Positions 1 through 41,640 are shown, counted from the first letter of the stretch. The stretch: DNA of 64,000 nt from Patescibacteria group bacterium (GCA_043817315.1 JBDRGY010000001.1:9732-73731), one strand, 5' to 3'. Numbers and translations: made by a program. The notes: generated by a model from the letters alone, not told the origin.

Positions 1-2
1 CC

Positions 3-209
3 ATTGCCAAAGCGGAAGAACACCACGAAGAAAGATACAAGAAACTGCTGAAAATTGTAGAAAATGGTACTGCCTTCAAGAAAGCTAAAGAAGTTTGGTG
101 GGTCTGTCGGGAATGCGGCTATGTTCATTTCGGAAACGAAGCTCCAAAGGTCTGTCCTTCCTGTGATCACGAGCAAGCTTTCTACATGCTTAAGTGCGAA
201 GAGTATTAG
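3..209 (+). CDS. rubrerythrin, C-terminal part (5' partial); ends with rubredoxin-like CxxC..CxxC domain
   Basis: Frame-3 translation gives ...EEHHEERYKKLLK...WVCRECGYVHFGNEAPKVCPSCDHEQAFY*. This is ferritin-like ExxH followed by a C-terminal rubredoxin fold, typical of rubrerythrin. Confidence 0.6.
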   Translation: MAKAEEHHEERYKKLLKIVENGTAFKKAKEVWWVCRECGYVHFGNEAPKVCPSCDHEQAFYMLKCEEY

Positions 210-263
210 TCTGAAGTTAGGAAGCCGATAAGTTATCAAGTTTAATATTAAATACCCAATTAC

Positions 264-782
264 ATGGTTAAATTATATCGCTGTGAAATCTGCGGTGATT
301 CTTATATTGGAGAAGAGCCACCCAGCCGCTGTCCTTTTTGCGGAGCTCATCAGAAGTATATTAAAGAGGTCAATGAGGCGAGAGTTAATTTTGAGGTGAA
401 TTTATCCGAAAAAGATAAGGCTAACGTTGAACACGCTTTACAGGTAGAAATCTCTAACGCCGCTTTTTACGATTGTGCTTCGAGTAAGACTGATGATGAC
501 GAGGGAAAATTACTGTTTAAAGCCTTAAAGAAAGTTGAGCTAGAACACGCTACTGTCTGGAAAAAGATTTTGAAACTTGATGCAATGCCAACTGGCAATG
601 ATCAGTGTCATGTTGCTAACAAAGAGAATCTGGAAGACTCACATACCAGAGAAACTAAAGCCATCGAATTTTACACTAAGGCGGCTGGCGAAGCTGATGA
701 TCAAAGGGTCAAACAGATTTTCCAAGCTTTCGTGGAAGTGGAAACTGATCATCTATATCTTTCTGAAGTTAGATTAAAATAA
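264..782 (+). CDS. reverse rubrerythrin-like protein (N-terminal rubredoxin-like CxxC..CxxC plus ferritin-like ELEH/ETDH motifs)
   Basis: ORF protein starts MVKLYRCEICGD...RCPFCGA and contains VELEHA and EVETDHL diiron-type motifs. Confidence 0.55.
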   Translation: MVKLYRCEICGDSYIGEEPPSRCPFCGAHQKYIKEVNEARVNFEVNLSEKDKANVEHALQVEISNAAFYDCASSKTDDDEGKLLFKALKKVELEHATVWKKILKLDAMPTGNDQCHVANKENLEDSHTRETKAIEFYTKAAGEADDQRVKQIFQAFVEVETDHLYLSEVRLK

Positions 783-795
783 GTAACCCAATTGT

Positions 796-1170
796 ATGAC
801 TGAACTTAAACAAGTATATAAATGCAGTGTTTGCGGTAATATCGTTGAGATGCTACATACTGGGGCCGGGGGATTGGTTTGTTGCGGACAACCGATGGAA
901 TTGCAGGTGGCTAATACTGTGGACGCTGCCCAGGAAAAGCACGTGCCGGTAATCGAAAAAACTGACAACGGCGTTAAAGTTAAAATTGGCTCCGAACCGC
1001 ATCCGATGACCGAAGAGCACCACATTGAATGGATTGAAGTAATTGTTGATGGTCATTCCTGCATGCAGTTTCTAGAACCAACCGGACAACCGGAAGCAGA
1101 ATTTTGTCTAACAGGAGAAAAAATAGAAACTAGAGCTTACTGCAATCTACACGGACTTTGGAAAGCTTGA
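796..1170 (+). CDS. dfx: desulfoferrodoxin / superoxide reductase (2Fe-SOR)
   Basis: N-terminal desulforedoxin motif CSVCGNIVE...CCGQPM, and a neelaredoxin-type domain with HVPV...HPM..EHHIEWIE. Size 124 aa is typical. Confidence 0.8.
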   Translation: MTELKQVYKCSVCGNIVEMLHTGAGGLVCCGQPMELQVANTVDAAQEKHVPVIEKTDNGVKVKIGSEPHPMTEEHHIEWIEVIVDGHSCMQFLEPTGQPEAEFCLTGEKIETRAYCNLHGLWKA

Positions 1171-1173
1171 AAA

Positions 1174-1662
1174 ATGGATCAAATAGAAGAAATTCAAACC
1201 GCCTCTTTCGCCGCCGGTTGTTTTTGGGGGATTGAACAAACTTTTCGAGATATACCGGGAGTAATTGAGACCAGCGTAGGTTACGCCAGCGGACAAATAA
1301 AAAACCCGACCTATAGCTTGGTTAGTACAGGGAAAACCGGTCATGCCGAAACGGTTCAGTTAAAATTCGATCCGGATCAAGTCAGTTATCAACAGCTTTT
1401 AGATAAATTCTGGAAGATCCATAACCCGACCAGTTTAAATGGACAGGGGCCGGATGTGGGCAGTCAGTACCGCTCGATTATCTTTTATCATAACGATCAG
1501 CAAAAAGAATTGGCCGAATCGACCAAGATACAGCTGGATAAGACAGGGCACTACGATAAGCCAATCGTTACCGAGATTGTCAAAGCAGGAGATTTTTACC
1601 GTGCCGAGGAGTATCATCAACAATACTACGAGAAAAAGGGAATAAAAGGCTGTAGCATTTAG
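1174..1662 (+). CDS. msrA: peptide methionine sulfoxide reductase A
   Basis: Contains the GCFWG active-site motif (AAGCFWGIEQTF) and is 162 aa. Confidence 0.85.
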   Translation: MDQIEEIQTASFAAGCFWGIEQTFRDIPGVIETSVGYASGQIKNPTYSLVSTGKTGHAETVQLKFDPDQVSYQQLLDKFWKIHNPTSLNGQGPDVGSQYRSIIFYHNDQQKELAESTKIQLDKTGHYDKPIVTEIVKAGDFYRAEEYHQQYYEKKGIKGCSI

Positions 1663-1674
1663 AAGAAATAAAAA

Positions 1675-1708
1675 AACTCCCAGTATATATACTCGGAGTT
1701 TTTTTATT
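1675..1708 (+). terminator. intrinsic terminator after msrA
   Basis: Hairpin actcc-cagtatatatactc-ggagt followed by a run of seven T. Confidence 0.6.
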
Positions 1709-1953
1709 GTTTATTTTACCTTTTTGCTTTGATTGCGAATGCAAGAAGTGCAAACCATGATTGATTTACCGTCTTTCTTAATTTTTTGTAAATTCAAATA
1801 TTGGCGCCGTTTAGTCGCTATGTTAGAATGACTCCTTTTATTTCCCTTGAGAGCTCCTCTTTGGCAGAGGGCACATACTTTAGCCATAAACGATAATGTG
1901 TTAAAATTACGAGGTACAAGTATTATAGCAAAAGAGATAAATTTGACAAGGGT

Positions 1954-2595
1954 ATGATAATAGAATTACTCTGGGAAAATCCACCATTATTTCTGGTCTG
2001 GGTGCTGGCCGTGGTATTTGCTATCACTATTCATGAATTCAGCCATGCCCTTTTTGGCTACCTTTTAGGTGATAAAACAGCCAAGGATATGGGCCGGTTG
2101 ACTCTCAATCCGTTAGCCCACTTGGATTTTTTTGGTTTCTTCTTACTGATGATTGCGGGATTTGGCTGGGGCAAACCAGTCCCTTTCAATCCTAATAACC
2201 TGAAGAATAAAAAATGGGGACCAGGAATAATTGCCTTTGCCGGTCCCTTGTCCAATTTGATATCAATTATTGTTTTTGGAATTGCCCTTAAATTGGTGGC
2301 CTCTTACTCTGGCTTGGCCATGGATAACTTATTGGTATTATTTCTGATTTACCTGATTCAGATTAATATGATATTGATGTTATTCAATCTTTTACCCATA
2401 CCTCCCCTGGATGGCTCTAAGGTGATGTTTTCCTTCTTGCCGCGAAGCGCCATCAACTTTAAGATTTTTCTGGAAAGATTCGGCCCCACCATTATTTTGA
2501 TGCTGATTTTGTTTGACAGGATGATTTTGGGATATGGCTTTTTTGGGACGGTATTTAGCGAAGTCTACTCCTTCATTTTAGACGTCATTTTTTAG
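1954..2595 (+). CDS. M50-family (site-2 protease-like) zinc metalloprotease, integral membrane
   Basis: HEFSH (HExxH) in the first TM region, and multiple hydrophobic segments. Confidence 0.6.
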   Translation: MIIELLWENPPLFLVWVLAVVFAITIHEFSHALFGYLLGDKTAKDMGRLTLNPLAHLDFFGFFLLMIAGFGWGKPVPFNPNNLKNKKWGPGIIAFAGPLSNLISIIVFGIALKLVASYSGLAMDNLLVLFLIYLIQINMILMLFNLLPIPPLDGSKVMFSFLPRSAINFKIFLERFGPTIILMLILFDRMILGYGFFGTVFSEVYSFILDVIF

Positions 2596-2708
2596 AATAA
2601 AGCCTCCTTTGGTCTGTCGGATCCGCAATCCGATTTTTTGATTGACACAATTATTAAATAGCAGTAAAGTGGGGGTGGATCTTTGAATATTCCTACAAGG
2701 AGGGGGTT

Positions 2709-2978
2709 ATGAAAAGCCAAGAACTTGAGGATCTGCATCGCCGGCTGCAGGAGCGGAAGAAGCAACTACAAGCTCCCGGTGCCAACCGTCAGCTGGTTGA
2801 ACAAGCGGAAAGAGTGGAAAGACTTTATGGTCAGCCCACGGTCCGCAGTCGTGGCTACCGCACCGAAGCCAGACAGGCCCGAATCCGGAGAGAAGCGCAA
2901 GTCGAGCTAATCAACGAAGCGCTGCGTGATCTGAGAAAAGGGGACCCCAGCAAGGCCCTGTCCATTTTGGGAGAATAA
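2709..2978 (+). CDS. small highly charged (R/E/Q-rich, likely coiled-coil) hypothetical protein; GC-rich relative to flanks
   Basis: Strong RBS aggagggggtt before the ATG. Own promoter TTGACA-16-TAAAGT at about 2643-2670. Followed by a terminator hairpin at 3005-3040. Codon composition is much more GC-rich than neighbouring genes. Confidence 0.5.
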   Translation: MKSQELEDLHRRLQERKKQLQAPGANRQLVEQAERVERLYGQPTVRSRGYRTEARQARIRREAQVELINEALRDLRKGDPSKALSILGE

Positions 2979-3004
2979 CGTTCCTTAATATGATCCAGCT
3001 ACGG

Positions 3005-3040
3005 GCGCCTCTTCCTGGCATTGAGGCGCTTTTCTTATTT
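3005..3040 (+). terminator. intrinsic terminator
   Basis: Hairpin ggcgcctcttcctggcattgaggcgc followed by ttttcttattt. Confidence 0.5.
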
Positions 3041-3043
3041 GCT

Positions 3044-3071
3044 TGACACCATATTTGCCCCGTGTTATGAT
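3044..3071 (+). promoter_or_regulatory. sigma70-like promoter of str operon (TTGACA-16-TATGAT)
   Basis: cttgacaccatatttgccccgtgttatgat, about 70 nt upstream of rpsL. Confidence 0.5.
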
Positions 3072-3141
3072 TTTGCTTGAAAAGATGAATCGCTTATCGT
3101 CTGCCAATAATCATCTTTTTTTGTTATAATAAATATCAACT

Positions 3142-3621
3142 ATGCCTACAATCAACCAATTAGTCAGAAAAGGGCGTAAAAAGATAAAGAAGAAGTCCAA
3201 AACTCCAGCCCTGGAGACAACCTTAAATGTGCTCAAAAGAAAGAAGACTAAGCTGAAAAAGGGCTGTGCTTTCAAGCGAGGGGTTTGTGTCAAGGTAACC
3301 ACGGTTACCCCCAAAAAGCCCAATTCAGCCCTGCGCAAGATTGCCAGAGTCCGGCTTTCTAATGGCATGGAAGTAACTGCTTACATTCCCGGTATCGGTC
3401 ATAATTTACAAGAACACTCCATAGTTTTGATACGAGGTGGCAGAGTTAAAGACCTGCCCGGCGTACGTTATCACGTGATTAGGGGTCGTTATGACACCCA
3501 GGGCGTAGATAACCGCAAGCAGAGCCGAAGTCTTTATGGAGTCAAAAAAGAAAAGGGGACTACCAAAGCTCCAACAGCTGCCAAGGCTCCCACTAAAGAA
3601 CCAACCAAAGAGGAGAAATAA
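3142..3621 (+). CDS. rpsL: 30S ribosomal protein S12, with internal insertion and ~35 aa K/T/P-rich C-terminal extension
   Basis: [14 protein letters not shown]...[22 protein letters not shown]...VRYHVIRG. Confidence 0.9.
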
Positions 3622-8247: not shown

Positions 8248-8610
8248 ATGCCCAACCAGGAAAAGAAAGCAGATCCGAAAAAAGCTGAACAAGGCGAAGA
8301 GGAAATTAAGCCGCGTATTCGAATTAAGATTCGAGCCTATGATCATAAGATTATTGATCAGTCGTGCCAGACAATCATCGATACTGCCGAGCGAACTGGA
8401 GCGGAGATATCAGGCCCTGTTCCTTTGCCAACCGAAAAAAGTAAATATACTTTGATTCGTTCTCCTTTTGTGCATAAAGATTCTCGCGAGCAGTACGAAA
8501 TGAGGATTCACAAGCGCCTGATTGATATCGTGGAACCTTCCGCTAAAACCGTGGATGAATTGAGCAATCTGAATTTACCGGCCGGCGTCGACATAGAAAT
8601 AAAAATGTAG
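8248..8610 (+). CDS. rpsJ: 30S ribosomal protein S10 (N-terminal ~18 aa extension)
   Basis: [16 protein letters not shown]...[15 protein letters not shown]. Confidence 0.9.
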
Positions 8611-8697
8611 ATTGAAAAACTTAAATAGCGAATTAGTTCAGGAGATGATAATACCAAAAACGCAGTGTTAATCTCCCGATAACGATTTGCCAAAGAA

Positions 8698-8738
8698 CCG
8701 AGATTTTTGGTATTTTTGCAGATCGTCTCGGTTTTTAT
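8698..8738 (+). promoter_or_regulatory. hairpin + T5 (terminator/attenuator-like) in rpsJ-rplC spacer
   Basis: ccgagatttttggtatttttgcagatcgtctcgg followed by ttttt, inside a 142-nt intergenic region. Confidence 0.4.
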
Positions 8739-8752
8739 TATATATGTACAGT

Positions 8753-9433
8753 ATGGATTTCATCTTAGGAAAAAAATTGAATATGTCTACTTCTTTCACC
8801 GAGGATGGTGAAGCATTGCCAGTTACTCTGGTTGAGGCTGGTCCCTGCATGGTAACTCAAATAAAGAGTCAGGATAAAGAAGGGTATCAAGCTGTGCAAA
8901 TTGGTTATGGTACCAAAAAGAAGCTGAACAAACCTCTAAAGGGGCATCTAAAGGACTTGGGCGACTGGCGCTTTTTAAGGGAGTTTCGAGTAGACAAGAC
9001 AGAGGACTTTAAAAAAGGACAAAAGATTGAAATAGGTCAATTTAAACCCGGAGACTTGCTGCGAATTACCGGAATTGCCAAAGGAAAAGGTTTTCAGGGA
9101 GTAGTTAAAAGATACGGCTTTAAGGGATCACCGGCTACCCACGGACACAAAGATCAATTACGAATGCCGGGCTCCATAGGGGCCACTGGTCCCCAAAAAG
9201 TTTTTAAAGGAACCAGGCTGCCGGGACGGATGGGAGGACATCAGGCCACTATTAAAAATTTAGAAGTATTGGAAGTTGATCCGGAAAAAAGCATAATGAC
9301 TATTAAAGGAGCCATTCCTGGATCCCGAAACGGCTTGTTGCTAATGCTAAAGACCGGAGCCAGGCCCCAAAAAGCTAAACCAGAAAAAGAGGAAGTTAAA
9401 AAAGAAAAGAAAGATAAAGAAGTGAAAAAATAA
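8753..9433 (+). CDS. rplC: 50S ribosomal protein L3 (K/E-rich C-terminal tail)
   Basis: The start is taken at MDFILGKKLNMSTSFTEDGEALPVT, an internal Met of the longer track ORF, because the upstream part lacks similarity. Confidence 0.8.
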   Translation: MDFILGKKLNMSTSFTEDGEALPVTLVEAGPCMVTQIKSQDKEGYQAVQIGYGTKKKLNKPLKGHLKDLGDWRFLREFRVDKTEDFKKGQKIEIGQFKPGDLLRITGIAKGKGFQGVVKRYGFKGSPATHGHKDQLRMPGSIGATGPQKVFKGTRLPGRMGGHQATIKNLEVLEVDPEKSIMTIKGAIPGSRNGLLLMLKTGARPQKAKPEKEEVKKEKKDKEVKK

Positions 9434-9434
9434 G

Positions 9435-10076
9435 ATGCCTAAAGATTTATCAGTTAAAATATATTCAGCGGATGGCAAGTCAACCGAGACCGTAAAACTT
9501 GACCCCAAAATCTTTAAGGTTGCTATCAAAGAACCCTTGGTTCACCAAGTAGCCGTAGCTCAATTGGCTAACGCTCGTCATCCCTTGGCCCATGCCAAAA
9601 TAAGATCCGAAGTTCGTGGTGGAGGAAGAAAGCCTTGGCGCCAGAAGGGTACAGGCCGAGCCAGACACGGTTCTATTAGGTCACCAATTTGGCGTGGCGG
9701 TGGCGTCACTTTCGGACCGACAAAAAATCGTAATTTTTCTAAAAGAGTAAATAAAGCTGCCAGACAGAAAGCAATTCGCATGGTTTTGACCGACAGACTG
9801 TCCAGCAAGGCAATAATAGTCTTGGATAACCTCAAGTTGGCTGATTACAAAACAAAAGATTTACTAAAGATACTCAACAAATTGCCGTCAAAGCAGAAAA
9901 GCAACTTAATAATCCTGCCAAAAAGCGACCAGAAAGTATATCGCTCGGCCAGTAATTTAAAAAAGGTGGAAACAATCTTGGCTGACAGTCTCAATGTAGT
10001 CAGCTTGCTCAAATACGACTATTTGATAATTATCAAAGACAGTTTAAAAAAGATATCTCAAACTTTTGCCAAATAA
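9435..10076 (+). CDS. rplD: 50S ribosomal protein L4
   Basis: Position and sequence ([25 protein letters not shown]). Confidence 0.9.
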
Positions 10077-17737: not shown

Positions 17738-19017
17738 TGGGTTTAATGCAAAAAGTGTCACAGGTCTGGCGCGTCAAAGATATTCGAAAGCGTATACTTT
17801 TTGTATTGGGACTGTTGATAGTTTTTAGAATAGCTGCTCATATCCCGGTGCCCGGAGTTGATGTAGAAGCCTTGAAACAATTTTTTGACAGTAACCAGGT
17901 TTTAGGTTTATTGAATCTGTTTTCTGGTGGGGCCATGGCCAACTTTTCCATAGTGATGCTTGGTGTCGCTCCCTACATTACCGCTTCCATTATTTTCCAA
18001 CTGCTGACCATGATTATCCCCAAACTGGAAGAAATCCAAAGGGATGGAGAGGCAGGCCGAGCCAAGATCAATCAATGGCAGCGTTATCTGACTATTCCTT
18101 TAGCTGCTCTGCAGGCCTACAGCATGATAATCATTCTGTCCAAGCAGGGCCAGGGGATTATCAATATTGTTTCTCCGATACAGTGGTTGAGCACTATCAT
18201 TACAATTACCGCCGGTACTGTATTTCTGATGTGGTTAGGTGAGCTGATTACCGAAAAAAATATCGGCAACGGAATTTCCTTAATTATTTTCGCCGGTATC
18301 GTAGCCAGATATCCCACTCAGCTGCAACAGACCATGGCTACTTTTGACGCTACTCAGGTAATTACCTTAATAATCTTTGCCACCATTGCCATTCTGACTA
18401 TTGCCGGGGTGGTATTGGTTACCCAGGGACAGCGCAATATTCCCGTATCTTATGCCAAGAGAATTAGGGGCAATAGGATGTATGGCGGGGTCTCTACCCA
18501 TTTACCATTGAAAGTTAACCAAGCCGGCGTCATCCCAATTATTTTTGCCATTTCTATTATTTTGATTCCACCCATGGTGGCGCAATGGCTGGTAAATTCC
18601 AATATCACTTGGCTGGCATCTCTGGCCAACACGACAGTCAATCTTTTCAACAACCAAATATTCTATTCGGCTATCTATTTTACTTTTGTTGTCGCTTTTA
18701 CTTATTTTTACACTGCGGTTGTTTTCCACCCGGATCAGATCTCGGAGAATTTACAGAAACAAGGTGGTTTTGTACCCGGAATCAGACCAGGGCGCAATAC
18801 AGCCGAGTTTCTCAGCTACACCTCCTCACGCATTCTGCTTACCGGTGCCTTATTCTTGGGCATCATAGCTGTTCTGCCGTATATCATGCAGGCTACGACT
18901 AATATCACCACTTTTGCTATTGGCGGTACCAGTTTATTGATTGTAGTTTCCGTGGTTATCGAGACAGTCAAACAGGTAGAATCTCAACTGATCATGCGGG
19001 ATTACGAAGGATTTTAG
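17737..19017 (+). CDS. secY: preprotein translocase subunit SecY
   Basis: 426 aa multi-TM protein with typical SecY N-terminus (RILFVLGLLIVFRIAAHIPVPG). Confidence 0.95.
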   Translation: MGLMQKVSQVWRVKDIRKRILFVLGLLIVFRIAAHIPVPGVDVEALKQFFDSNQVLGLLNLFSGGAMANFSIVMLGVAPYITASIIFQLLTMIIPKLEEIQRDGEAGRAKINQWQRYLTIPLAALQAYSMIIILSKQGQGIINIVSPIQWLSTIITITAGTVFLMWLGELITEKNIGNGISLIIFAGIVARYPTQLQQTMATFDATQVITLIIFATIAILTIAGVVLVTQGQRNIPVSYAKRIRGNRMYGGVSTHLPLKVNQAGVIPIIFAISIILIPPMVAQWLVNSNITWLASLANTTVNLFNNQIFYSAIYFTFVVAFTYFYTAVVFHPDQISENLQKQGGFVPGIRPGRNTAEFLSYTSSRILLTGALFLGIIAVLPYIMQATTNITTFAIGGTSLLIVVSVVIETVKQVESQLIMRDYEGF

Positions 19018-19054
19018 TTTAGGAAGTAGGGATTAAAATAACAAATATTAAAAA

Positions 19055-19085
19055 ATGACCGGGGTGTTCCGGTCATTTTAAATTC
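19055..19085 (+). terminator. terminator after secY
   Basis: Hairpin aatgaccggggtgttccggtcatt followed by ttta. Confidence 0.5.
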
Positions 19086-19103
19086 TGCTGTGTTGTGGAA
19101 TTA

Positions 19104-19242
19104 AAGCCTCAGCTTGGTGCGCCAGAGACTAAAGTCTCTAATCCACATAGTTTTTACTAACACCAGAAACTGAAGTCTCCATTCCGCGGAGGTTGTGGGA
19201 TAGAAGCTTCAGCTTCTTTGCACCAGAGGCTAAAGTGTCTAC
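19104..19242. repeat. REP-like palindromic repeat cluster upstream of RAYT
   Basis: Two copies of a ~37-bp unit, each with the hairpin core cCAGAGRCTAAAGTSTCTA (19122-19140 and 19223-19242). Also one copy of the 27-bp repeat atccacatagtttttactaacaccaga (19141-19167). Confidence 0.6.
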
Positions 19243-19260
19243 CCCCGTAATATATTAAAA

Positions 19261-19758
19261 ATGAAAAATCCTTATCATAATCCACCTCATATATATTTAG
19301 ATGATACTGTATATTTTATTACAGCTAAAACAATTGGGAAAAATAATCATTTTAGTTCTAATAAGAAAAAAGAAATACTGAAAAATAGATTATCGCAAAC
19401 AGTGAAAGAATTGAAAATAATAATATATGCCTGGGTTATTCTTGATAACCACTATCACTTACTAATTAAAATAAAGAAAAAAAGCGACCTATCAAAGTTG
19501 ATGCAGCTATTCCATGGAAGAACGTCTTATATATTAAATAAAGTTGATGACAAAAAAGGCAGGCAAGTCTGGTTTAATTATTGGGACCATTGTATTAGAA
19601 ATGAAAAAGATTTTAATAATCATCTAAATTACATACATTTTAATCCGGTTAAACACGGCTTAGTTAGTAAACCAGGAGATTATAAATATTCGAGTTACGG
19701 CCAATATTTGAAGAAGGGTTATTATGAGCGGAAGAGACTAAAGCTCCAATCCACATAG
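19261..19758 (+). mobile_element. IS200/IS605-like HUH tyrosine transposase of the REP-associated (RAYT) type
   Basis: HuH motif NHYHLLIK and a catalytic-Tyr region YIHFNPVKHGLV...YKYSSY. The 3' end of the ORF is built from repeat sequence. Palindromic REP-like repeats flank it on both sides. Confidence 0.6.
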
Positions 19759-19840
19759 TTTTTACTAACACCAGAGGCTAAAATCTCTATTCCTGGGGCA
19801 AACGAGAGACTAAAGTCTCTATCCCGCAGGGGTTTTTGTG
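19731..19840. repeat. REP-like repeat cluster downstream of RAYT
   Basis: A degenerate core gaagagactaaagctccaat (19731-19750). A second copy of the 27-bp repeat (19748-19774). Cores ccagaggctaaaatctctat (19771-19790) and cgagagactaaagtctctat (19803-19822). Then cccgcaggggttttt. Confidence 0.6.
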
Positions 19841-19911
19841 CTATAATAATGGAGGCTTGACAGTATACTAATATTAAGATAAAGTATTAGACTAAATATT
19901 AAAGAAAAATC

Positions 19912-22900
19912 ATGACTAAAAAGGTAATCATTTTAGCGGTGGTTGGCGTTTTTTGCTTATTTTATAGCGCTGATTCAGCTCGGGCTCCTTATAAACAGGA
20001 TAGCCCTCAATTATGTACCCAAAGCTCTGAAGTGCTCGGTATTGATCAATCTGATCCTACGCCCAAGATCGGTTCTGCTAACCCGGCCGCTGTTTATTGT
20101 ACCGAACTTGGCTATAAGCATGATATCATCACCGAAGCTGATTCTAGTCAGCACGCCGATTGCGTTTTCCCTGATAATAGCCGGTGTGATGAATGGTCAT
20201 TTTACTATGGACAATGCGGGCAGACCCATTCTTATTGCGCCCAAAACGGTTACGATATTATTACCAAACAAGCAAATGATAATCCTTATTCTCAAAAGTA
20301 CACGGTTTGTACCGAGAATGGCCGAGAGATCGGGGCGGTGGCTGACTTGATGAATCTGGAGGATAAAATTGTAGGAGCCAGTTATAAACCAACGGCTGAA
20401 GAGATTTTAGCCTCGAAAGACAGTGGATCCGGAAGTAACAGAGTCCTGCCGGATAGTTTTAACTGGCAAGACTTTTTAGGCCAGAATTTTATGACTCCGG
20501 TTAAAGATCAACAGACTTGCCCTCTTTGTTGGGCTTTTTCTGCTATCGGCACTACAGAAGGAATGTATGATATCAGAAATGGTGCTGATTACAATCTGGA
20601 CATGTCCGAACAACAAATAGCTTCATCCGGCGGAGTCGGCTATTGTGCCGGTTACGGCTGTGTCCCCGGTGGTTCAACTAATGCCTTGAATTATATCAGA
20701 GATTATGGTTTGGTCAGTGAAACTTGTTTCCCTTACACCAATAGTGGTTCAACACCCTGCAATCTGTGCAGTGGCTGGGAATCAGAATTGAAGTATATCA
20801 CTGATAAGAATATTGATATTCCTTCGGATACTGAATCAATAAAGGAGTATATTTTTAATCACGGACCGGTCTCGGTTAATATGGCTTTTGATTTTGGAAC
20901 TATTCAGTGGGGAGATTATGATGGCAATAATATTTACCGTTGTGATGAAGGAGACCCCGGTTATGACATCAACCACGCGGTGGTCATCTCCGGCTATAAT
21001 GAGATAGAAGATTATTGGGTAGTCAAGAACAGCTATGGAACATACTGGGGTCAGGGAAACGGAGATGGATACTTCAATGTCGGCTATGGCGAGTGCAACA
21101 TACAGGGCAGTCCTACCGGGGTAGAGCTGGACCATGAATGCGGAGGTTTTGTCTACACCCAAGCTGATGCCACTTTGAATAAAGATTTAATTGGCTGTTC
21201 AAATGGATTGAGCATCATGGCAGATGATATCGCGTTTGATTGCCAAGGCCACAAAATTTCCGGAACCGGATCTGGTGTTGGTATTAATCTTAATGGCAGA
21301 ACCAATGTGACGATTAATAATTGTGTGATAGAAGGCTTTGACACAGGAATAAATCTGGTCAATTCCGAGAATAATCAGTTCTTTGGCAATATTTTCATGA
21401 ACAATAATTTCAATGCTTCTGAAGATGCCAGCTCCAATAATAATAACTGGAATGATGTTGATACTGGAAATTATTGGGATGATTATGAAATCAATCCTGG
21501 ATTGCCATGGGGTTATGAGATTACCGGACCAGGAGATGGCATGGATTACAAATTTTATCTGACAGAAGACAATGTGACAACCTTCAACAACGGTCTACCT
21601 TCAGAGCAATTGACTTTTACCGGAGAAGATATTACAAGATATATTGAACTGCCCAAAGATAATCTAGCAATTGGTGGCGATTTTGAGGTGACAGGCATAG
21701 TCTCTTACACTGCTAATGATGATGAGTTCCAGGATGATTGGGATAGTGCAGGTGAGTTCTATCTGCCGGCTACTTACGGTCCGGAAAAAGCGGTAGACGG
21801 TGATTACGGTACCAAGTCAATTTGTGTTTATGACACTTATTGTGACATATTTGAATATTATGATAGAGATCCCAGTATTACTTCAGCTACCTGGACTTTC
21901 AAATATCAGCTTTATTCCGGAGCCGGCGGAGCTAAAGTAGAATGTTGGAATTATGACACTAGTGCTTATGAACAGTTTTATTATTCTAGTCAAACTAATA
22001 TCCAAACTAAGAGTGCAGCGGTTCCGGCAGCTTGCTTAAGCGGCCCGCAATTGAAAGTGAGAACACCAATGAACGGTTTAGGCGGCGGCGGTTTCCGCTT
22101 ATTTGAAAGTAAAGTAACCTGGGATGAACCGATGTATCCGACCAATCCGGAGATAGAAGTAGGGACCGATGACAATAATCCAGAATGGTCATACAGTGGA
22201 GTATTTGACCAAAGCAATGTAGCCATTGGCGACTTTTCTTATGCTTTGTATCAAGCGCTGAATCACGGGGCTTGTGATTGCACCGGCTGTACTTTAAACG
22301 ACGATACTTGTTCCATCCCGGTCAAATTCCATTCAGCCACCGGCGGAATCCTGGAGTATTCCAATATTGGAGTAAGTCATGCTTCCCCATTTTTAGACAC
22401 TGATAGCGATGGAGTGGCTGATGTGAATGATAATTGTCAGGCAACTTATAACCCGGGACAGGAAGACTTTGACGAAGACGGAATCGGTGATGTCTGTGAC
22501 AACTGCCAAAACGACTACAACCCCGGGCAAGAGGACGGTGATGGTGATCTGATCGGCAACGTCTGCGATAATTGTCCGATTAACTATAACCCCGGCCAAG
22601 AAGACGGTGATGGAGATCTTGTTGGTGATGTCTGTGATAATTGTGAGTTTATTAATAACCCCGGCCAAGAAGATGATGACTCGGATGGGATTGGTAACGT
22701 TTGTGACAACTGTGTGGAAGATTATAACCCAACCCAGTTAAACTCTGATGCCGATGTCTGGGGTGACGCTTGTGACAATTGCCATTTGGTATACAACCCT
22801 GCCCAAGGAGACATTGATACAGACACTGTCGGCGATGCCTGTGATTACGAAGATTATGAATATATTAGGCATTTCTCGGCTGAATATTTGGATACCGGCA

Positions 22901-23364
22901 ATGTCAGTTATGACAATGTAATGGGTGGCGGGCCCTGTAACCAGCCTGGTGGTTGTGAATACACAGACCAAACAACTTCAGTAGCCTTCTGCAATGGACC
23001 GAGTTATCCCAACTATTGTAGCTACCAAGGAACCTGCTACGAGGGAAATGGTTCAGTAATCTTAGATATTGACGGCGATGATCGACACGAAGCCATCTGT
23101 GTCGGTAAGGGCTGGTGGGACTTAGATTCCGGAACTGAGTTAGGTTATGGTTATACGCCGTTACCGGGCATAGAAGTGTGTGAAATGGGTGGTTATCAGT
23201 GGCTACCAGGCGAAACAACCGCTGTGGGTGAATACCTGTGGAGTTACAATAACTTCGGTTGTTGCGGAGATGATGAGGGTGAGTATATTGATGGAATAAC
23301 CTGCAAGAGTTCGATTAGAAAATCAATTCCGGTCAAACAGCCAATTATCGGCTTATTTCGATAA
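19912..23364 (+). CDS. large secreted multidomain protein: signal peptide, papain-like (C1) cysteine peptidase domain, beta-helix-like region, six thrombospondin type-3-like Ca-binding repeats, Cys-rich C-terminus
   Basis: N-terminal hydrophobic leader. QQTCPLCWAFSAIG (catalytic Cys) with NHAVVISGYNE...YWVVKNSYGTYWG (His/Asn/Trp). Six DxDxDGxGDxCDNCxxxYNPxQED repeats at 22393-22850. Own promoter TTGACA-17-TAAAGT at about 19857-19890. Confidence 0.7.
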   Translation: MTKKVIILAVVGVFCLFYSADSARAPYKQDSPQLCTQSSEVLGIDQSDPTPKIGSANPAAVYCTELGYKHDIITEADSSQHADCVFPDNSRCDEWSFYYGQCGQTHSYCAQNGYDIITKQANDNPYSQKYTVCTENGREIGAVADLMNLEDKIVGASYKPTAEEILASKDSGSGSNRVLPDSFNWQDFLGQNFMTPVKDQQTCPLCWAFSAIGTTEGMYDIRNGADYNLDMSEQQIASSGGVGYCAGYGCVPGGSTNALNYIRDYGLVSETCFPYTNSGSTPCNLCSGWESELKYITDKNIDIPSDTESIKEYIFNHGPVSVNMAFDFGTIQWGDYDGNNIYRCDEGDPGYDINHAVVISGYNEIEDYWVVKNSYGTYWGQGNGDGYFNVGYGECNIQGSPTGVELDHECGGFVYTQADATLNKDLIGCSNGLSIMADDIAFDCQGHKISGTGSGVGINLNGRTNVTINNCVIEGFDTGINLVNSENNQFFGNIFMNNNFNASEDASSNNNNWNDVDTGNYWDDYEINPGLPWGYEITGPGDGMDYKFYLTEDNVTTFNNGLPSEQLTFTGEDITRYIELPKDNLAIGGDFEVTGIVSYTANDDEFQDDWDSAGEFYLPATYGPEKAVDGDYGTKSICVYDTYCDIFEYYDRDPSITSATWTFKYQLYSGAGGAKVECWNYDTSAYEQFYYSSQTNIQTKSAAVPAACLSGPQLKVRTPMNGLGGGGFRLFESKVTWDEPMYPTNPEIEVGTDDNNPEWSYSGVFDQSNVAIGDFSYALYQALNHGACDCTGCTLNDDTCSIPVKFHSATGGILEYSNIGVSHASPFLDTDSDGVADVNDNCQATYNPGQEDFDEDGIGDVCDNCQNDYNPGQEDGDGDLIGNVCDNCPINYNPGQEDGDGDLVGDVCDNCEFINNPGQEDDDSDGIGNVCDNCVEDYNPTQLNSDADVWGDACDNCHLVYNPAQGDIDTDTVGDACDYEDYEYIRHFSAEYLDTGNVSYDNVMGGGPCNQPGGCEYTDQTTSVAFCNGPSYPNYCSYQGTCYEGNGSVILDIDGDDRHEAICVGKGWWDLDSGTELGYGYTPLPGIEVCEMGGYQWLPGETTAVGEYLWSYNNFGCCGDDEGEYIDGITCKSSIRKSIPVKQPIIGLFR

Positions 23365-23650
23365 ATACAGCTTTAAAATTACCCGTTGGTTATGATATAG
23401 CCGGCGGGTAGTTTTTGTTATGTTTTACGACAATTACCGAACCGCCCCCTTGGCCACTTTGTTGGGTAATAACCCAAAGCCGTTTCCCCCTCCTTATCAA
23501 GGAGGGGAGAATGAGTTGGTTCTTTTTGCTGAGTAAGTGTTAGAGGGGAGGTCCGGTATCCTAGAACATATTACAAAGTAATCTAGTTAAACTCGGTCAT
23601 TTTATTATTTTATGCTATAATAAACGGGTAATTTTTATTGAATAATATAA

Positions 23651-24340
23651 ATGAACACTTTAGGCAATCCTAAACATTTGGTTTTCTTAGGGCCGCCGGG
23701 TTCCGGCAAGGGAACTCAGGCCAAGCTTTTGATGGAGCAATGGAAGATGAATTATCTTTCCACCGGTGATATGGTCCGGGATTTTTTGGCCAAAGCCAAA
23801 GATGGAGATAATGTTGGTAGCGAGATGAAAGTAAGATATGACAAAGGTATTCCCCAGCCCGATGATTTGATAATTAAGGGTGTAAGGGAAGTGATCAAAA
23901 ACTGGGATTTGAGAAAGGGTGTCATTTTTGACTCTTTTCCCCTATCCGAGCAGCAGGCCTGGGGATTAGATCTGATTGTTAAGGATTTTATCATGGAAAT
24001 CCCCATCGTCCTCTACATTGCCATTTCAGAGGAAGAGGCAGTCAACCGACTCTCCAAAAGGAAATATTGTCCTAACTGCAAATCTGTTTTTTACCCCCTA
24101 TCGCCCAATTATGAAAGTGGTTCTTGTGATAAGTGCAGTACAGTATTAATTTCTCGCTCTGATGATAAACCGGAAGTGGTTAAGAAGCGATATCTGGAAT
24201 ATGTAGGACGCATGGAGGCCTTGAAAAAATTCTATGAACCCAGACTTCGCTGGGTTAATATTGACGGGGAACAGTCTGTCGAGGAAGTACAACAAGAGAT
24301 AATAAAAAAATTGACCGAGTTTCGAGCCAAAAGAGCATGA
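23651..24340 (+). CDS. adk: adenylate kinase (zinc-finger LID)
   Basis: GPPGSGKGTQ P-loop and CPNC...CDKC lid motifs. Confidence 0.9.
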   Translation: MNTLGNPKHLVFLGPPGSGKGTQAKLLMEQWKMNYLSTGDMVRDFLAKAKDGDNVGSEMKVRYDKGIPQPDDLIIKGVREVIKNWDLRKGVIFDSFPLSEQQAWGLDLIVKDFIMEIPIVLYIAISEEEAVNRLSKRKYCPNCKSVFYPLSPNYESGSCDKCSTVLISRSDDKPEVVKKRYLEYVGRMEALKKFYEPRLRWVNIDGEQSVEEVQQEIIKKLTEFRAKRA

Positions 24341-25081
24341 TCGATATAAAGACCGATAAAGAAATTGCCTTGATGAAAAAGGGAGGGCAAATATTGTCCC
24401 TGGTTCTTCATCAAGTAGCCAAAAGTGTCAAACCCGGAATCTCCACCTACGACCTGGATAAAATGGCTTATCAAATGATAAAACAAAGGAAGGCCAAGCC
24501 TTCTTTTTTGGGTCATGAAGGTTATCCCGCCTCTCTCTGTGTTTCTATCAATGAAGAATTGGTGCATGGCTTGCCTCATAAAGACCGAATAATAAAGTCA
24601 GGAGATATTGTCAGTGTTGATCTGGGGGTTAAATATAAGGGACTTTATACTGATATGGCTCTGACAGTTGCGGTGGGCCAAATAAGTCCGGAAGCTTAAA
24701 AAACTGATCAGAGTTACGGCTAAATCATTGGATAAAGCCATTAAGGTATTGCGACCCGGTGTTCATCTGGGTGATGTATCGGCAGCCATTCAGAATTATG
24801 TGGAGCAGCAAGGTTTTTCCGTGGTACGCCAGCTGGTGGGTCACGGAGTAGGCAAAAAAGTCCACGAAGATCCCCGGGTGCCCAATTTCGGAAAGAAAGG
24901 GGAGGGAGTAATCCTCAAAGAAGGCATGTGCTTGGCTATAGAGCCGATGGTTAATATGGGCGGTGCGGACGTTGCCCTAAAAGGTGATGACTGGACCTAT
25001 CAATCGGCTGATTCTAGCTTATCAGCCCATTTTGAAAAGAGCATAGCCATTGTCAAAAACGGCTACCTAATTCTGACTTAA
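24337..25081 (+). pseudogene. map: methionine aminopeptidase type I split by a +1 frameshift in an A6 run (24698-24703)
   Basis: ORF 24337..24699 is the MAP N-terminal half ending ...VAVGQISPEA*. The next frame continues KLKKLIRVTAKSLDKAIKVLRPG..., which is the contiguous MAP sequence through to 25081. Confidence 0.75.
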
Positions 25082-28400: not shown

Positions 28401-29783
28401 TTAGAAATTCGGGGATTCCGGAACATCTTCAAGGGATTTTTCCAGATTTCTAAAGGAAACTCTTTTCTCGTCAAAGAATAAATCAACAATACCAGTGGGG
28501 CCATTACGGTGTTTGGCGATATGGATTTGGGCGATACTTTGCTTTTCCGGGGGTAAATCCTTCTTATACATGGCTTCACGGTAGATAAACATGACTACAT
28601 CAGCGTCTTGTTCAATAGAACCGGATTCACGCAAATCAGCTAATTTGGGGATATTGGAAGGTCTTTGTTCTACGGCCCGAGACAGCTGAGACAAAGCCAA
28701 AACAGGTACTTTCAATTCCCGGGCGATCCCCTTAAGAGCTCTGGTAATCTCGGAAACTTCCTGGACACGATTATCGGATCCAGCCCGGCCTTCCATCAGC
28801 TGCAAGTAATCGATGATGATCAAGCCCAAATTATGTTCGGCCTGAAGCCGCCTGGCCTTAGTGCGCAATTCCATTATATTAGAGGTGGCTGAATCATCGA
28901 TATAAATGGGGGCTTCTGAAAGCACTCCCATGGCATGCCCGATTTTGGGGAAATCGTCGTCTTCCGGGCGATCGGAAAGACGACCGGTTCTCATTTTCCA
29001 CAATTCGACATTAGCTTCTGAGCAGAGTAAACGGTCAACTAATTGTTCTTTGGACATTTCCAGGCTGAATATGCCAACCGGGACTTTTTGTTTGGTAGCT
29101 ACGTGCCGGGCCATGTCCAGAGCCAGGGTGGTTTTTCCCATTGAGGGGCGGGAAGCTAAAATCACCAGGTCGGAAGCCTGCAAACCAGCCAGTTTATTAT
29201 CCAGGTCTGAAAAGCCGGTGGGAATCCCTCTGAGCTTGCCGGATTCGCGGTGCAGTTCATCGATCCGATCAAAGGCTTCGGTTAAAACATTTTTGATAGG
29301 AATAAAATTTTGTTTGAGGTATTTCTGGGATACTTGAAACAGGGACTGCTCAGCCTTATCCAGCAAAACATCGACTTCGTCAGTTTCCTGATAACCGAAA
29401 CCTAGAATTTCTGAAGCGGTATGTATTAATCGCCTCAGGGTAGATTTTTTCTGGACCGTATTGGCGTAACTGGCTACATGACTGGCTGTGGGCACTGAAT
29501 TAGCCAGAGTAGCAAGATAAGTTTTTCCACCGATCTCTTTTAGCTTGCCTTTTTCCTCTAAACGGTTGGAGAGGCTAAGGATATCAATCGGCTCGTGTTT
29601 TTCATACAGTTCCACCATGGACTCAAAGATAGCGTTGTGAGTGTCCTTGTAGAAATCACCGGGAAGTATTATATCGGCGATTTTAGTAATGGCGTCTTTA
29701 TCAATCAATAAAGACCCCAATACCGCCTGTTCGGCTTCAATATTTTGGGGTGGTAGCTTTTCCGTCTGCTCATTTTTGGCCAT
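28401..29783 (-). CDS. dnaB: replicative DNA helicase DnaB
   Basis: 460 aa, Walker A GSRPSMGKTTLAL, and DnaB N-terminal domain. Confidence 0.9.
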   Translation of the reverse strand: MAKNEQTEKLPPQNIEAEQAVLGSLLIDKDAITKIADIILPGDFYKDTHNAIFESMVELYEKHEPIDILSLSNRLEEKGKLKEIGGKTYLATLANSVPTASHVASYANTVQKKSTLRRLIHTASEILGFGYQETDEVDVLLDKAEQSLFQVSQKYLKQNFIPIKNVLTEAFDRIDELHRESGKLRGIPTGFSDLDNKLAGLQASDLVILASRPSMGKTTLALDMARHVATKQKVPVGIFSLEMSKEQLVDRLLCSEANVELWKMRTGRLSDRPEDDDFPKIGHAMGVLSEAPIYIDDSATSNIMELRTKARRLQAEHNLGLIIIDYLQLMEGRAGSDNRVQEVSEITRALKGIARELKVPVLALSQLSRAVEQRPSNIPKLADLRESGSIEQDADVVMFIYREAMYKKDLPPEKQSIAQIHIAKHRNGPTGIVDLFFDEKRVSFRNLEKSLEDVPESPNF

Positions 29784-29923
29784 AGTATTGTTTATGTTAA
29801 CAGAAAAGCAGATTATAGCAATAGCGTTATCAATAGCTTACCCACAGTGATTTTCCACAAAAAAGTGGATACTTGATTTTCTTGAAAATCCCTGTAAAAT
29901 ACTATATACTTTATAAATACTAT

Positions 29924-41142: not shown

Positions 41143-41640
41143 ATGCCAATTCCCAAATCAGTTTTAAGCTACTTAGACCAAAATAAAATAAAATACGATA
41201 CCGTGGAACACCGCACAGTTTATACCGCCTGGGATTCGGCCCAAACCCAGCATATCAAGCCGGATCAGGTGGTTAAGACTTTAGTGTTGAAATATGATGC
41301 CGGCCACTGCTTAGCTTTACTTCAAGCCAACAAAAATATTGACTTTGCTAAATTCAAGAAAGTATTGAACGCCTGGCTGAAGCAAGAAGAACAAAAAGCA
41401 GCCAAAAAGGTCAGCCTGGACAAAGAAGCCTGGATGAAAAAGAGTATTGTGGGCAAAGTGGGTGCCACTCCGCCTTTTGGTTCTTTACTGAAAATGCCGG
41501 TTTTTATCGATGCCCCCGTTCTCAAGCAAAAAAAGATTCAAGTTAATTCCGGCGATTACGATTTTTCCCTGCAGATTACTGCCAGCGCCTTAATTAAATT
41601 AGAAAACCCCATCAAAGGAAACTTCGGAAAGAAAAAATAA
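41143..41640 (+). CDS. YbaK/ProX-family aminoacyl-tRNA deacylase-like protein
   Basis: 165 aa. N-terminal pattern VLSYLDQNKIKYDTVEHRTVYT and GATPPFG are typical of YbaK/ProX editing domains. Confidence 0.55.
   Translation: MPIPKSVLSYLDQNKIKYDTVEHRTVYTAWDSAQTQHIKPDQVVKTLVLKYDAGHCLALLQANKNIDFAKFKKVLNAWLKQEEQKAAKKVSLDKEAWMKKSIVGKVGATPPFGSLLKMPVFIDAPVLKQKKIQVNSGDYDFSLQITASALIKLENPIKGNFGKKK

Follow-up and report, generated by a model that had tools for sequence, protein, structure and literature searches.

The surface-associated protease Cwp84 of Clostridioides difficile is a papain-family (C1A) cysteine peptidase with a conventional propeptide and CWB2 cell-wall-binding repeats, and in the structures of thrombospondin and COMP the thrombospondin type-3 (TSP3) repeats form a Ca2+-loaded 'wire'. 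Multidomain prokaryotic C1A peptidases are numerous according to a 2023 survey, which left them unanalysed, and the same survey describes transfer of C1A genes between bacteria and archaea as common and extracellular C1A peptidases as carrying signal peptides (PMC10380794). Here we describe a gene in which a C1A catalytic domain is joined to TSP3-like repeats, found between secY and adk in a stretch of 64,000 nucleotides from a Patescibacteria group bacterium (GCA_043817315.1, JBDRGY010000001.1:9732-73731), which we call the window. From its sequence and predicted models, the product is probably an exported, Ca2+-stabilised, surface-targeted C1A cysteine endopeptidase, and its gene was probably acquired horizontally.

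The protease open reading frame (ORF) occupies positions 19912..23364 on the plus strand (3453 nt, 1150 aa, no internal stop), and an identical protein exists as the NCBI record "MAG: C1 family peptidase [Patescibacteria group bacterium]", MAG standing for metagenome-assembled genome. The original prediction, made from the DNA of the window without database searches, had placed a 1150-aa ORF at 19857-23364; its length and end were borne out, but the start codon is at 19912, and position 19857 marks the -35-like hexamer with which a sigma-70-like site opens. Once mature, the protein would have a mass of about 123 kDa and an isoelectric point of 4.05, with 182 acidic against 47 basic residues and 50 or 51 cysteines; four Pfam families lie above the gathering score, namely DUF333, Peptidase_C1, NosD and TSP_3. 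Opposite-strand ORFs of 91-108 aa within the gene were considered and rejected as genes.

The N-terminus of the protease (19912..19980; all modules described below are likewise on the plus strand) consists of MTKK, a 14-residue hydrophobic core and SADSA. It holds the sole hydrophobic segment of the protein, in that 19-residue Kyte-Doolittle windows above 1.6 start only at residues 1-6. In the AlphaFold2 (AF2) model residues 2-19 are helical and residues 21-43 are disordered, and homologs start with the same kind of N-terminus. By these features the protease N-terminus looks like a Sec signal peptide.

The catalytic domain (20446..21126) was recognised by Pfam, a sequence search of the PDB and Foldseek. 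Peptidase_C1 (PF00112) matches residues 179-400 with 121.9 bits against a cutoff of 20.7 (E 5.5e-35). The putative catalytic residues Gln200 (codon 20509-20511), Cys206 (20527-20529), His355 (20974-20976) and Asn373 (21028-21030) align to Gln228, Cys234, His381 and Asn403 of human DPPI and are all invariant in 117 aligned homologs, so that the intact Cys/His/Asn triad context read from the DNA alone was correct. Among PDB sequences, DPPI and cathepsins match at E ~1e-24, with DPPI the best at 1.8e-24. The AF2 model of residues 1-560 has a predicted local distance difference test score (pLDDT) of 81 and a predicted template modelling score (pTM) of 0.76, the C1 domain lying mostly at pLDDT 80-97. 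Foldseek places the predicted domain on cathepsins K, L and S, i.e., on the two-lobed papain fold, with template modelling (TM) scores of 0.78-0.82 and a root-mean-square deviation (rmsd) of ~3.6 A. Profile, catalytic motifs and predicted fold together assign the protease to peptidase family C1A.

The N-terminal position in which cathepsin-L-like zymogens carry the Inhibitor_I29 propeptide is taken in this protein by DUF333 (PF03891 / COG3042 'putative hemolysin'), which Pfam finds at residues 55-100 with 61.7 bits against a cutoff of 25 in the whole protein and with 71.5 bits, accompanied by a second, weak stretch, in a scan restricted to residues 48-178. As judged from PF03891 and AF2, residues 51-147 (20062..20352) comprise a clear DUF333 and a degenerate second DUF333-like unit (~105-147), i.e., a weak internal repeat; the six cysteines of this module are conserved across the family, and its pLDDT is 83-97. 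A search of this region against PDB sequences found no relative of a solved structure. Functional information on DUF333 (PF03891/COG3042, YoaF) was not found in the literature searched, where the paper on papain classification names DUF3335 alone, unrelated to DUF333.

A linker of ~30 residues (148-178; 20353..20445) leads from the DUF333 module into LPDSFNW, a typical papain-like mature N-terminus. The linker is the fastest-evolving segment of the protein, at 29-36% identity to close homologs, and its pLDDT of 71-81 suggests that it is ordered rather than floppy. No match to I29, with its ERFNIN and GNFD motifs, was found in the protease or in any of 120 listed homologs. DUF333 and C1 occur together in 119 of these 120 matches, a list that is biased toward DUF333+C1 proteins since the query contained both modules.

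The consistent placement of DUF333 before C1A domains gives a directly testable hypothesis for DUF333 function. We tentatively propose that DUF333 may be a previously unrecognised pro-region or inhibitor of papain-family peptidases, one that would replace I29 in this prokaryotic clade and would hold the linker at 148-178 in the cleft until activation; on present evidence this is possible and falls well short of probable. DUF333 also occurs as small standalone secreted proteins or lipoproteins in many bacteria, and if the proposal is true these standalone proteins become candidate cysteine-protease inhibitors. Of the three modules in the protease without an assigned function, DUF333 is the most useful to pursue, the others being a Cys-containing unit of ~80 aa, for which there are ~300 relatives, and a 10-Cys tail that is rare.

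The catalytic domain is followed by a NosD/PbH1-type parallel beta-helix (residues 406-545; 21127..21546), supported by PF05048 at 35.9 bits against a cutoff of 23.6 and by periodic short strands at residues 426-523 of the AF2 model with pLDDT >90. Next comes a middle region (residues 546-828; 21547..22395), modelled by AF2 at pLDDT ~90. Its first ~190 residues (~551-740) form a predicted galactose-binding-like jelly roll (beta-sandwich), with weak Foldseek matches to CBM32, F-lectin, MAM and Eph ligand-binding domains (E ~1e-4) and a TM score of ~0.6 to small CBM32 targets, and residues ~741-828 form the ~80-aa Cys-containing unit. An exhaustive representative search returned 297 relatives of the middle region, most of them relatives of the ~80-aa unit. 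No Pfam family matched this region or the C-terminal module (982-1132).

Residues 829-981 (22396..22854) are six full 23-residue TSP3-like units and one partial unit, close to the six tandem repeats originally placed at 22393-22850. TSP_3 (PF02412) scores 53.3 bits against a cutoff of 25, the PDB sequence search retrieves the type-3 repeats of COMP and thrombospondin-2 at E about 7e-27, and Tandem Repeats Finder reports a period-69 DNA array over the repeats with 72-76% identity. The stretch contains 12 cysteines, 44 acidic residues and 0 basic residues; the even cysteine number and the charge are compatible with Ca2+ binding and inter-repeat disulfides. AF2 gives the region no secondary structure, as expected for a calcium-wrapped 'wire' of TSP3 repeats, but with low confidence. 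The final Cys-rich module (residues 982-1132; 22855..23307) has GGGPCNQ and GCCGDDE motifs and 10 cysteines, which are invariant in the 4-5 relatives carrying the module. It is rare: only 10 further proteins were found to have it, most of them fragments, and these come from metagenome-assembled genomes of Patescibacteria and of unclassified 'archaeon' origin. The signal peptide, C1A, beta-helix, TSP3-like and Cys-rich regions had all been called by the original prediction, and each call is supported by Pfam, PDB, hydropathy or conserved cysteines. DUF333, the absence of I29, the jelly roll, the archaeal nearest homolog and the protease genes at the same slot in two other genomes did not figure in it.

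The first ~400 residues of the protease (signal, DUF333 plus second unit, linker, C1) recur in more than 100 proteins of bacteria and archaea, which then continue into diverging tails. They come from groups including Zixibacteria, Eisenbacteria, Dehalococcoidia, Anaerolineae, Peribacteraceae, Methanosarcinales, Nitrososphaerota and Aenigmarchaeota, and are annotated merely as 'C1 family peptidase' or 'DUF333 domain-containing protein'. Among the 120 listed homologs at least 15 carry TSP_3 and 23 carry a beta-helix. Since the modules are this common among prokaryotic homologs, the components are ordinary and only the complete seven-module combination is rare; to call the architecture unusual for a bacterial protein, as had been done, was an overstatement.

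The best full-length homolog (P0003; 62% identity, one TSP3 unit) lies on an archaeal contig (L002/L085, JGI Ga0272442_10014673), which also encodes aCPSF1 (882 bits) as well as a proteasome beta subunit and a CCA-adding enzyme, both of archaeal type. The window protein matches P0003 unevenly, with identities of 82-85% over the middle modules, 62% over the catalytic domain, 45% over DUF333 and 31% over the linker. A homolog this close on an archaeal contig points to cross-domain transfer, possibly module by module, and that relatives are common to Patescibacteria and archaea likewise suggests horizontal acquisition. The viral contigs scanned held no relatives of the protease, which leaves a phage-borne origin unsupported, and a metagenome scan recovered only the archaeal contig already known.

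Two bacterial loci show the gene in other surroundings. At one (L001) a 54%-identical homolog sits in an unrelated bacterial context, and a locus syntenic with it (L086; GCA_043815805.1, JBDRIN010000008.1, 7941-11607) carries a 5'-truncated copy with homology from residue ~526, which appears to be a remnant, as it has upstream stops and lacks a signal peptide. The next gene at L086 encodes a signal peptide, TSP_3 repeats and a HETGHNIFGLADEY motif with a weak Peptidase_M64 match (E 9e-4), and suggests that secreted TSP3-bearing proteases of several catalytic classes are recurrent in these genomes.

The archaeal-type proteins P0003 and P0004 (L002, L083) end, after the Cys-rich module, in a hydrophobic tail followed by Lys (FFSLAFFLTLFKKLGS, FNLGFLFPFFKKKPL). 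The window protein and its full-length homolog P0002 (54% identity), both bacterial, lack this tail, which possibly serves archaea as a membrane anchor or sorting signal not yet characterised. NCBIfam models of C-terminal sorting (archaeosortase/exosortase CTERM, LPXTG) found no match in the window protein, P0002, P0003 or P0004, the homologs being scanned to E 10, and by hydropathy no C-terminal hydrophobic segment was found in the window protein.

To place the gene in its genomic setting, 80 SecY-relative loci were compared, first from Moranbacteria-like Patescibacteria (60-69% identity) and then from Chloroflexota and Actinomycetota. In 73 of the 80, secY and adk are adjacent, with adk beginning 2-539 bp after secY; the gap in the window is 4633 bp. 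Neither a RAYT (the transposase gene described below) nor a protease homolog was found within 7 kb of secY in these 80 relatives. The protease gene and the RAYT had been predicted to split a conserved spc-alpha cluster, and they do separate secY from adk, but no alpha operon follows and the break is better described as secY / adk-map-ruvX. Six of the loci (L013, L017, L029-L031, L037) have Patescibacteria-type SecY and ribosomal clusters in records labelled Bathyarchaeia, Bdellovibrionales or Gammaproteobacteria, and are probably mis-binned.

Two genomes have a protease gene at the same slot. One contig (L087; JGI Ga0180430_10039982, 2-3309) begins inside a homolog of the protease that is 62.5% identical over residues 881-1150, the Cys-rich module included, and continues directly into adk (64%), an intact single-ORF map and ruvX, an order which matches that of the window and shows the arrangement to be common to a second, moderately diverged genome. 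A 123-aa minus-strand ORF lies between that homolog and adk, and the spacer has GC-rich hairpins unlike the repetitive extragenic palindromic (REP)-like units of the window. In the closest relative (L003; JAIWBS010000021.1; SecY 86% identical at the amino acid level, 70.7% nucleotide identity over 8.3 kb), secY is followed directly, at 8369-9611, by a gene for a signal peptide and a Peptidase_S8 subtilase (E 8.9e-11), within which the contig ends; its record bears the label 'Pirellulales', apparently a binning error. With C1 peptidases in the window and L087 and an S8 peptidase in L003, the secY-adk junction of this Patescibacteria lineage may be a hotspot for interchangeable secreted-protease genes.

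The insert of the window runs, in order, through a hairpin after secY, a RAYT (REP-associated tyrosine transposase) flanked by REP-like units, promoter-like motifs, the protease gene and a hairpin with a T-run. The first, terminator-like hairpin (19052..19079; -16.4 kcal/mol, z -5.1 against shuffles) follows the secY stop at 19017 and would insulate the spc genes from the insert. The REP/RAYT element (19124..19836, plus strand) contains the RAYT gene at 19261-19758, whose product scores 131.7 bits against a cutoff of 80 with NF047646 (REP-associated tyrosine transposase), and palindromic REP-like units AGAGACTAAAGTCTCT at 19124, 19165 and 19225 before the gene and at 19773 and 19805 after it. 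The REP pattern has 8 matches against 0.34 expected, and in the 64-kb window the REP-like units occur only around the RAYT; one match with 3 mismatches inside the protease gene, at 20400, is probably due to chance. A 50-nt direct repeat stands on both sides of the RAYT (19136-19185 and 19744-19793). Neither a second RAYT nor a second protease was found in the window, and a 165-aa ORF at 41143, considered as a paralog of either, proved unrelated.

Between the RAYT and the protease lies a promoter-like region (19839..19885, plus strand) comprising the extended -10 motif TGCTATAAT at 19839-19847 and TTGACA-17-TAAAGT at 19857-19885, the latter being the best sigma-70-like match of the region, with 10 of 12 consensus positions. 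The window contains four copies of TGCTATAAT where 0.54 would be expected, at 1922-1930 (minus strand), 19839-19847 (plus), 23613-23621 (plus) and 29812-29820 (minus), and three of the four stand, correctly oriented, 29-65 nt upstream of gene starts, those of the protease, adk and the gene ending at 29783. From this excess and the position before gene starts, TGCTATAAT is likely to serve as a promoter signature in this genome. For the copy at 1922, no gene is evident downstream on the same strand. A terminator-like hairpin with a T-run (23375..23415, plus strand; -24.9 kcal/mol, z -5.5) follows just past the protease stop, and with the promoter-like motif and the flanking hairpins the protease looks like an insulated transcription unit, as far as motif matches can tell. 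The claim that the gene has its own promoter stands to the same extent, on consensus motif matches.

The TGCTATAAT extended -10 motif at 23613..23621 (plus strand), 30 nt before the adk start at 23651, would allow adk to be transcribed from a promoter of its own beyond the insert. The spacer between protease and adk (23365-23650) also holds a second stable hairpin at 23481-23513 (CCCCTCCTT...AAGGAGGGG; -20.1 kcal/mol, z -4.3), and a 19-nt inverted repeat (23375-23393 / 23617-23635) links the terminator with the adk promoter region. A search of 18900-23800 with Rfam found no RNA family. Adk of the window (23651-24340) is only ~27-35% identical to that of most Moranbacteria-like relatives, where SecY is 60-69% identical, and reaches 52% in L005 and 64% in L087, which suggests that adk is unusually divergent or was replaced in this sub-lineage; L019 lacks adk, and there map stands directly after secY. 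The map gene of the window (24337-25081) carries a frameshift at an A6 run (24698-24703) and so reads as two ORFs, which reflects either a homopolymer assembly error or a pseudogene.

Taking protein and locus together, we propose the following course of events for the protease. It would be exported by the Sec pathway, as the single N-terminal hydrophobic segment suggests, and would fold outside the cell with ~25 disulfides, a figure that follows from even cysteine counts per module. Its seven DxDxDG-type units would bind Ca2+ and form a rigid, disulfide-stapled acidic spacer, by homology to thrombospondin and COMP, and the beta-helix, the CBM32-like jelly roll and the Cys-rich tail may dock the enzyme on a glycan-rich or proteinaceous surface, as their fold resemblance suggests. 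Peptide bonds would be hydrolysed by Gln200, Cys206, His355 and Asn373, and the DUF333 module with its ordered linker would most likely be a pro-region or active-site regulator. The gene would have been acquired horizontally and would be expressed from an insulated transcription unit at the secY-adk junction beside the REP/RAYT element. In a small-genome Patescibacterium the enzyme may carry out extracellular proteolysis on the surface of a host or neighbouring cell, for nutrients or for attachment, and the suggestion that it is a surface or host-interaction factor is plausible from the sequence features.

Several observations weigh against this proposal. The -3/-1 positions of the putative signal peptide are non-canonical. 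Neither a membrane anchor (transmembrane segment), a lipobox nor a known sorting signal was found in the protease, which makes surface retention speculative. The jelly-roll resemblance is weak (E ~1e-4) and no proof of glycan binding, the TSP3 and Cys-rich regions are both modelled at low AF2 confidence, and Ca2+ binding and the disulfide pattern are inferred solely by homology. The bias of the homolog list, given above, belongs here as well.

Other explanations can be set against that of an exported, surface-targeted endopeptidase. The enzyme could be directed at the cell's own envelope, maturing its S-layer by cutting its own secreted surface proteins as Cwp84 does in C. difficile; the gene stands directly after secY, a homolog fills the same slot in a second genome, the closest relative has another secreted protease in that slot, and the non-catalytic modules could bind the cell's own envelope. 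We think this unlikely nevertheless, because in 80 of 80 relatives the gene is found neither in the slot nor within 7 kb on either side of secY, because elsewhere it has unrelated contexts and one truncated copy, a patchiness that fits an accessory gene and not a core enzyme, and because terminators insulate it from secY. The catalytic domain raises a different question, whether the protein is instead an exopeptidase like DPPI, in which DUF333 would be retained as an 'exclusion-domain'-like block of the cleft and not as a removable pro-region. DPPI is indeed the best PDB sequence match of the domain, and in the model the N-terminal module and linker are ordered and the pTM implies fixed domain packing. 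The DPPI match is, however, just marginally above those of endopeptidase cathepsins, and Foldseek superposes the model only poorly on whole DPPI (rmsd 18 A). Moreover, the DPPI exclusion domain is an eight-stranded barrel, whereas DUF333 in the model is a small disulfide-rich alpha/beta unit, so that we regard an exopeptidase of this kind as distinctly improbable.

That the gene makes no active enzyme at all fits the evidence worse. The patchy distribution, the truncated copy in one relative, the adjoining mobile-element-like RAYT and the frameshift in neighbouring map would suit a horizontally acquired passenger without function that is now decaying; yet no stop interrupts the 3453-nt ORF, all modules keep 42-85% identity to homologs in other genomes with every cysteine retained, and the gene has promoter-like and terminator signals of its own, all of which makes decay very unlikely. 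A pseudo-protease scaffold serving as a non-enzymatic adhesin, with Ca2+-dependent adhesion through TSP3, beta-helix and jelly roll, could draw on the facts that more than half of the protein consists of non-catalytic, binding-type modules, that NCBIfam describes TSP3 proteins such as MtsC as mediators of cell-cell cohesion and that L086 retains only the non-protease half. This can hardly be right, given that the protein has all four catalytic residues with their surrounding motifs intact, that these do not vary within the family, and that the L086 copy, which has no signal peptide, resembles a remnant.

Patescibacteria, whose genomes are tiny, rely on other cells, and there are few clues to how they feed on these partners or attach to them; large secreted enzymes belong to those clues. 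The protease gene adds a well-resolved example of a predicted surface-targeted cysteine protease in this group, and indicates that such genes move between Patescibacteria and archaea and can lodge in a highly conserved bacterial gene cluster without destroying it. The finding overturns nothing in current understanding.

Compared with described systems, the protease is closest in its catalytic part to the papain-family C1A enzymes (cathepsins L, K and S and the catalytic domain of DPPI), with which it has in common the predicted fold, the Gln/Cys/His/Asn set and the flanking motifs, Trp177 of papain being replaced by Tyr375. It differs from them in lacking I29, in having DUF333 and the linker before the mature-type N-terminus, in adding ~750 C-terminal residues in five further modules, and in its prokaryotic host. 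Cwp84 is like it a secreted bacterial C1A enzyme with non-catalytic surface-binding modules, but is without DUF333, TSP3 repeats and beta-helix. The repeat unit DxDxDGxGDxCDNCxxxxNPxQxD matches the C-type T3 motif of thrombospondin and COMP (PDB 3fby, 1yo8, 2rhp) residue by residue, paired cysteines included; the array in the window is, however, uniform, without the alternating N-type/C-type pattern, and is fused to a bacterial protease that has neither a C-terminal lectin-like domain nor EGF repeats. NCBIfam also includes bacterial TSP3 families, namely MtsC (NF047638), described there as serving cell-cell cohesion in Myxococcus, and the Omp28-related selenoprotein (NF045500). Membership of the protease in either was rejected, at 109.1 against a cutoff of 350 and 95.1 against 200 respectively; these proteins share with it just the TSP3 stretches, and it lacks both the MYXO-CTERM signal and the Omp28 domain. 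The DUF333+Peptidase_C1 group (P0018 from Zixibacteria, P0060 from Methanosarcinales, P0006 from Patescibacteria) is 30-44% identical to the window protein in the head, whereas the tail of beta-helix, jelly roll, 80-aa unit, seven TSP3 units and 10-Cys module is found whole only in P0002, partly in P0003 and as a fragment in P0121. The protease is thus a multidomain prokaryotic C1A peptidase of the widespread, unstudied and already auto-annotated DUF333-C1 group.

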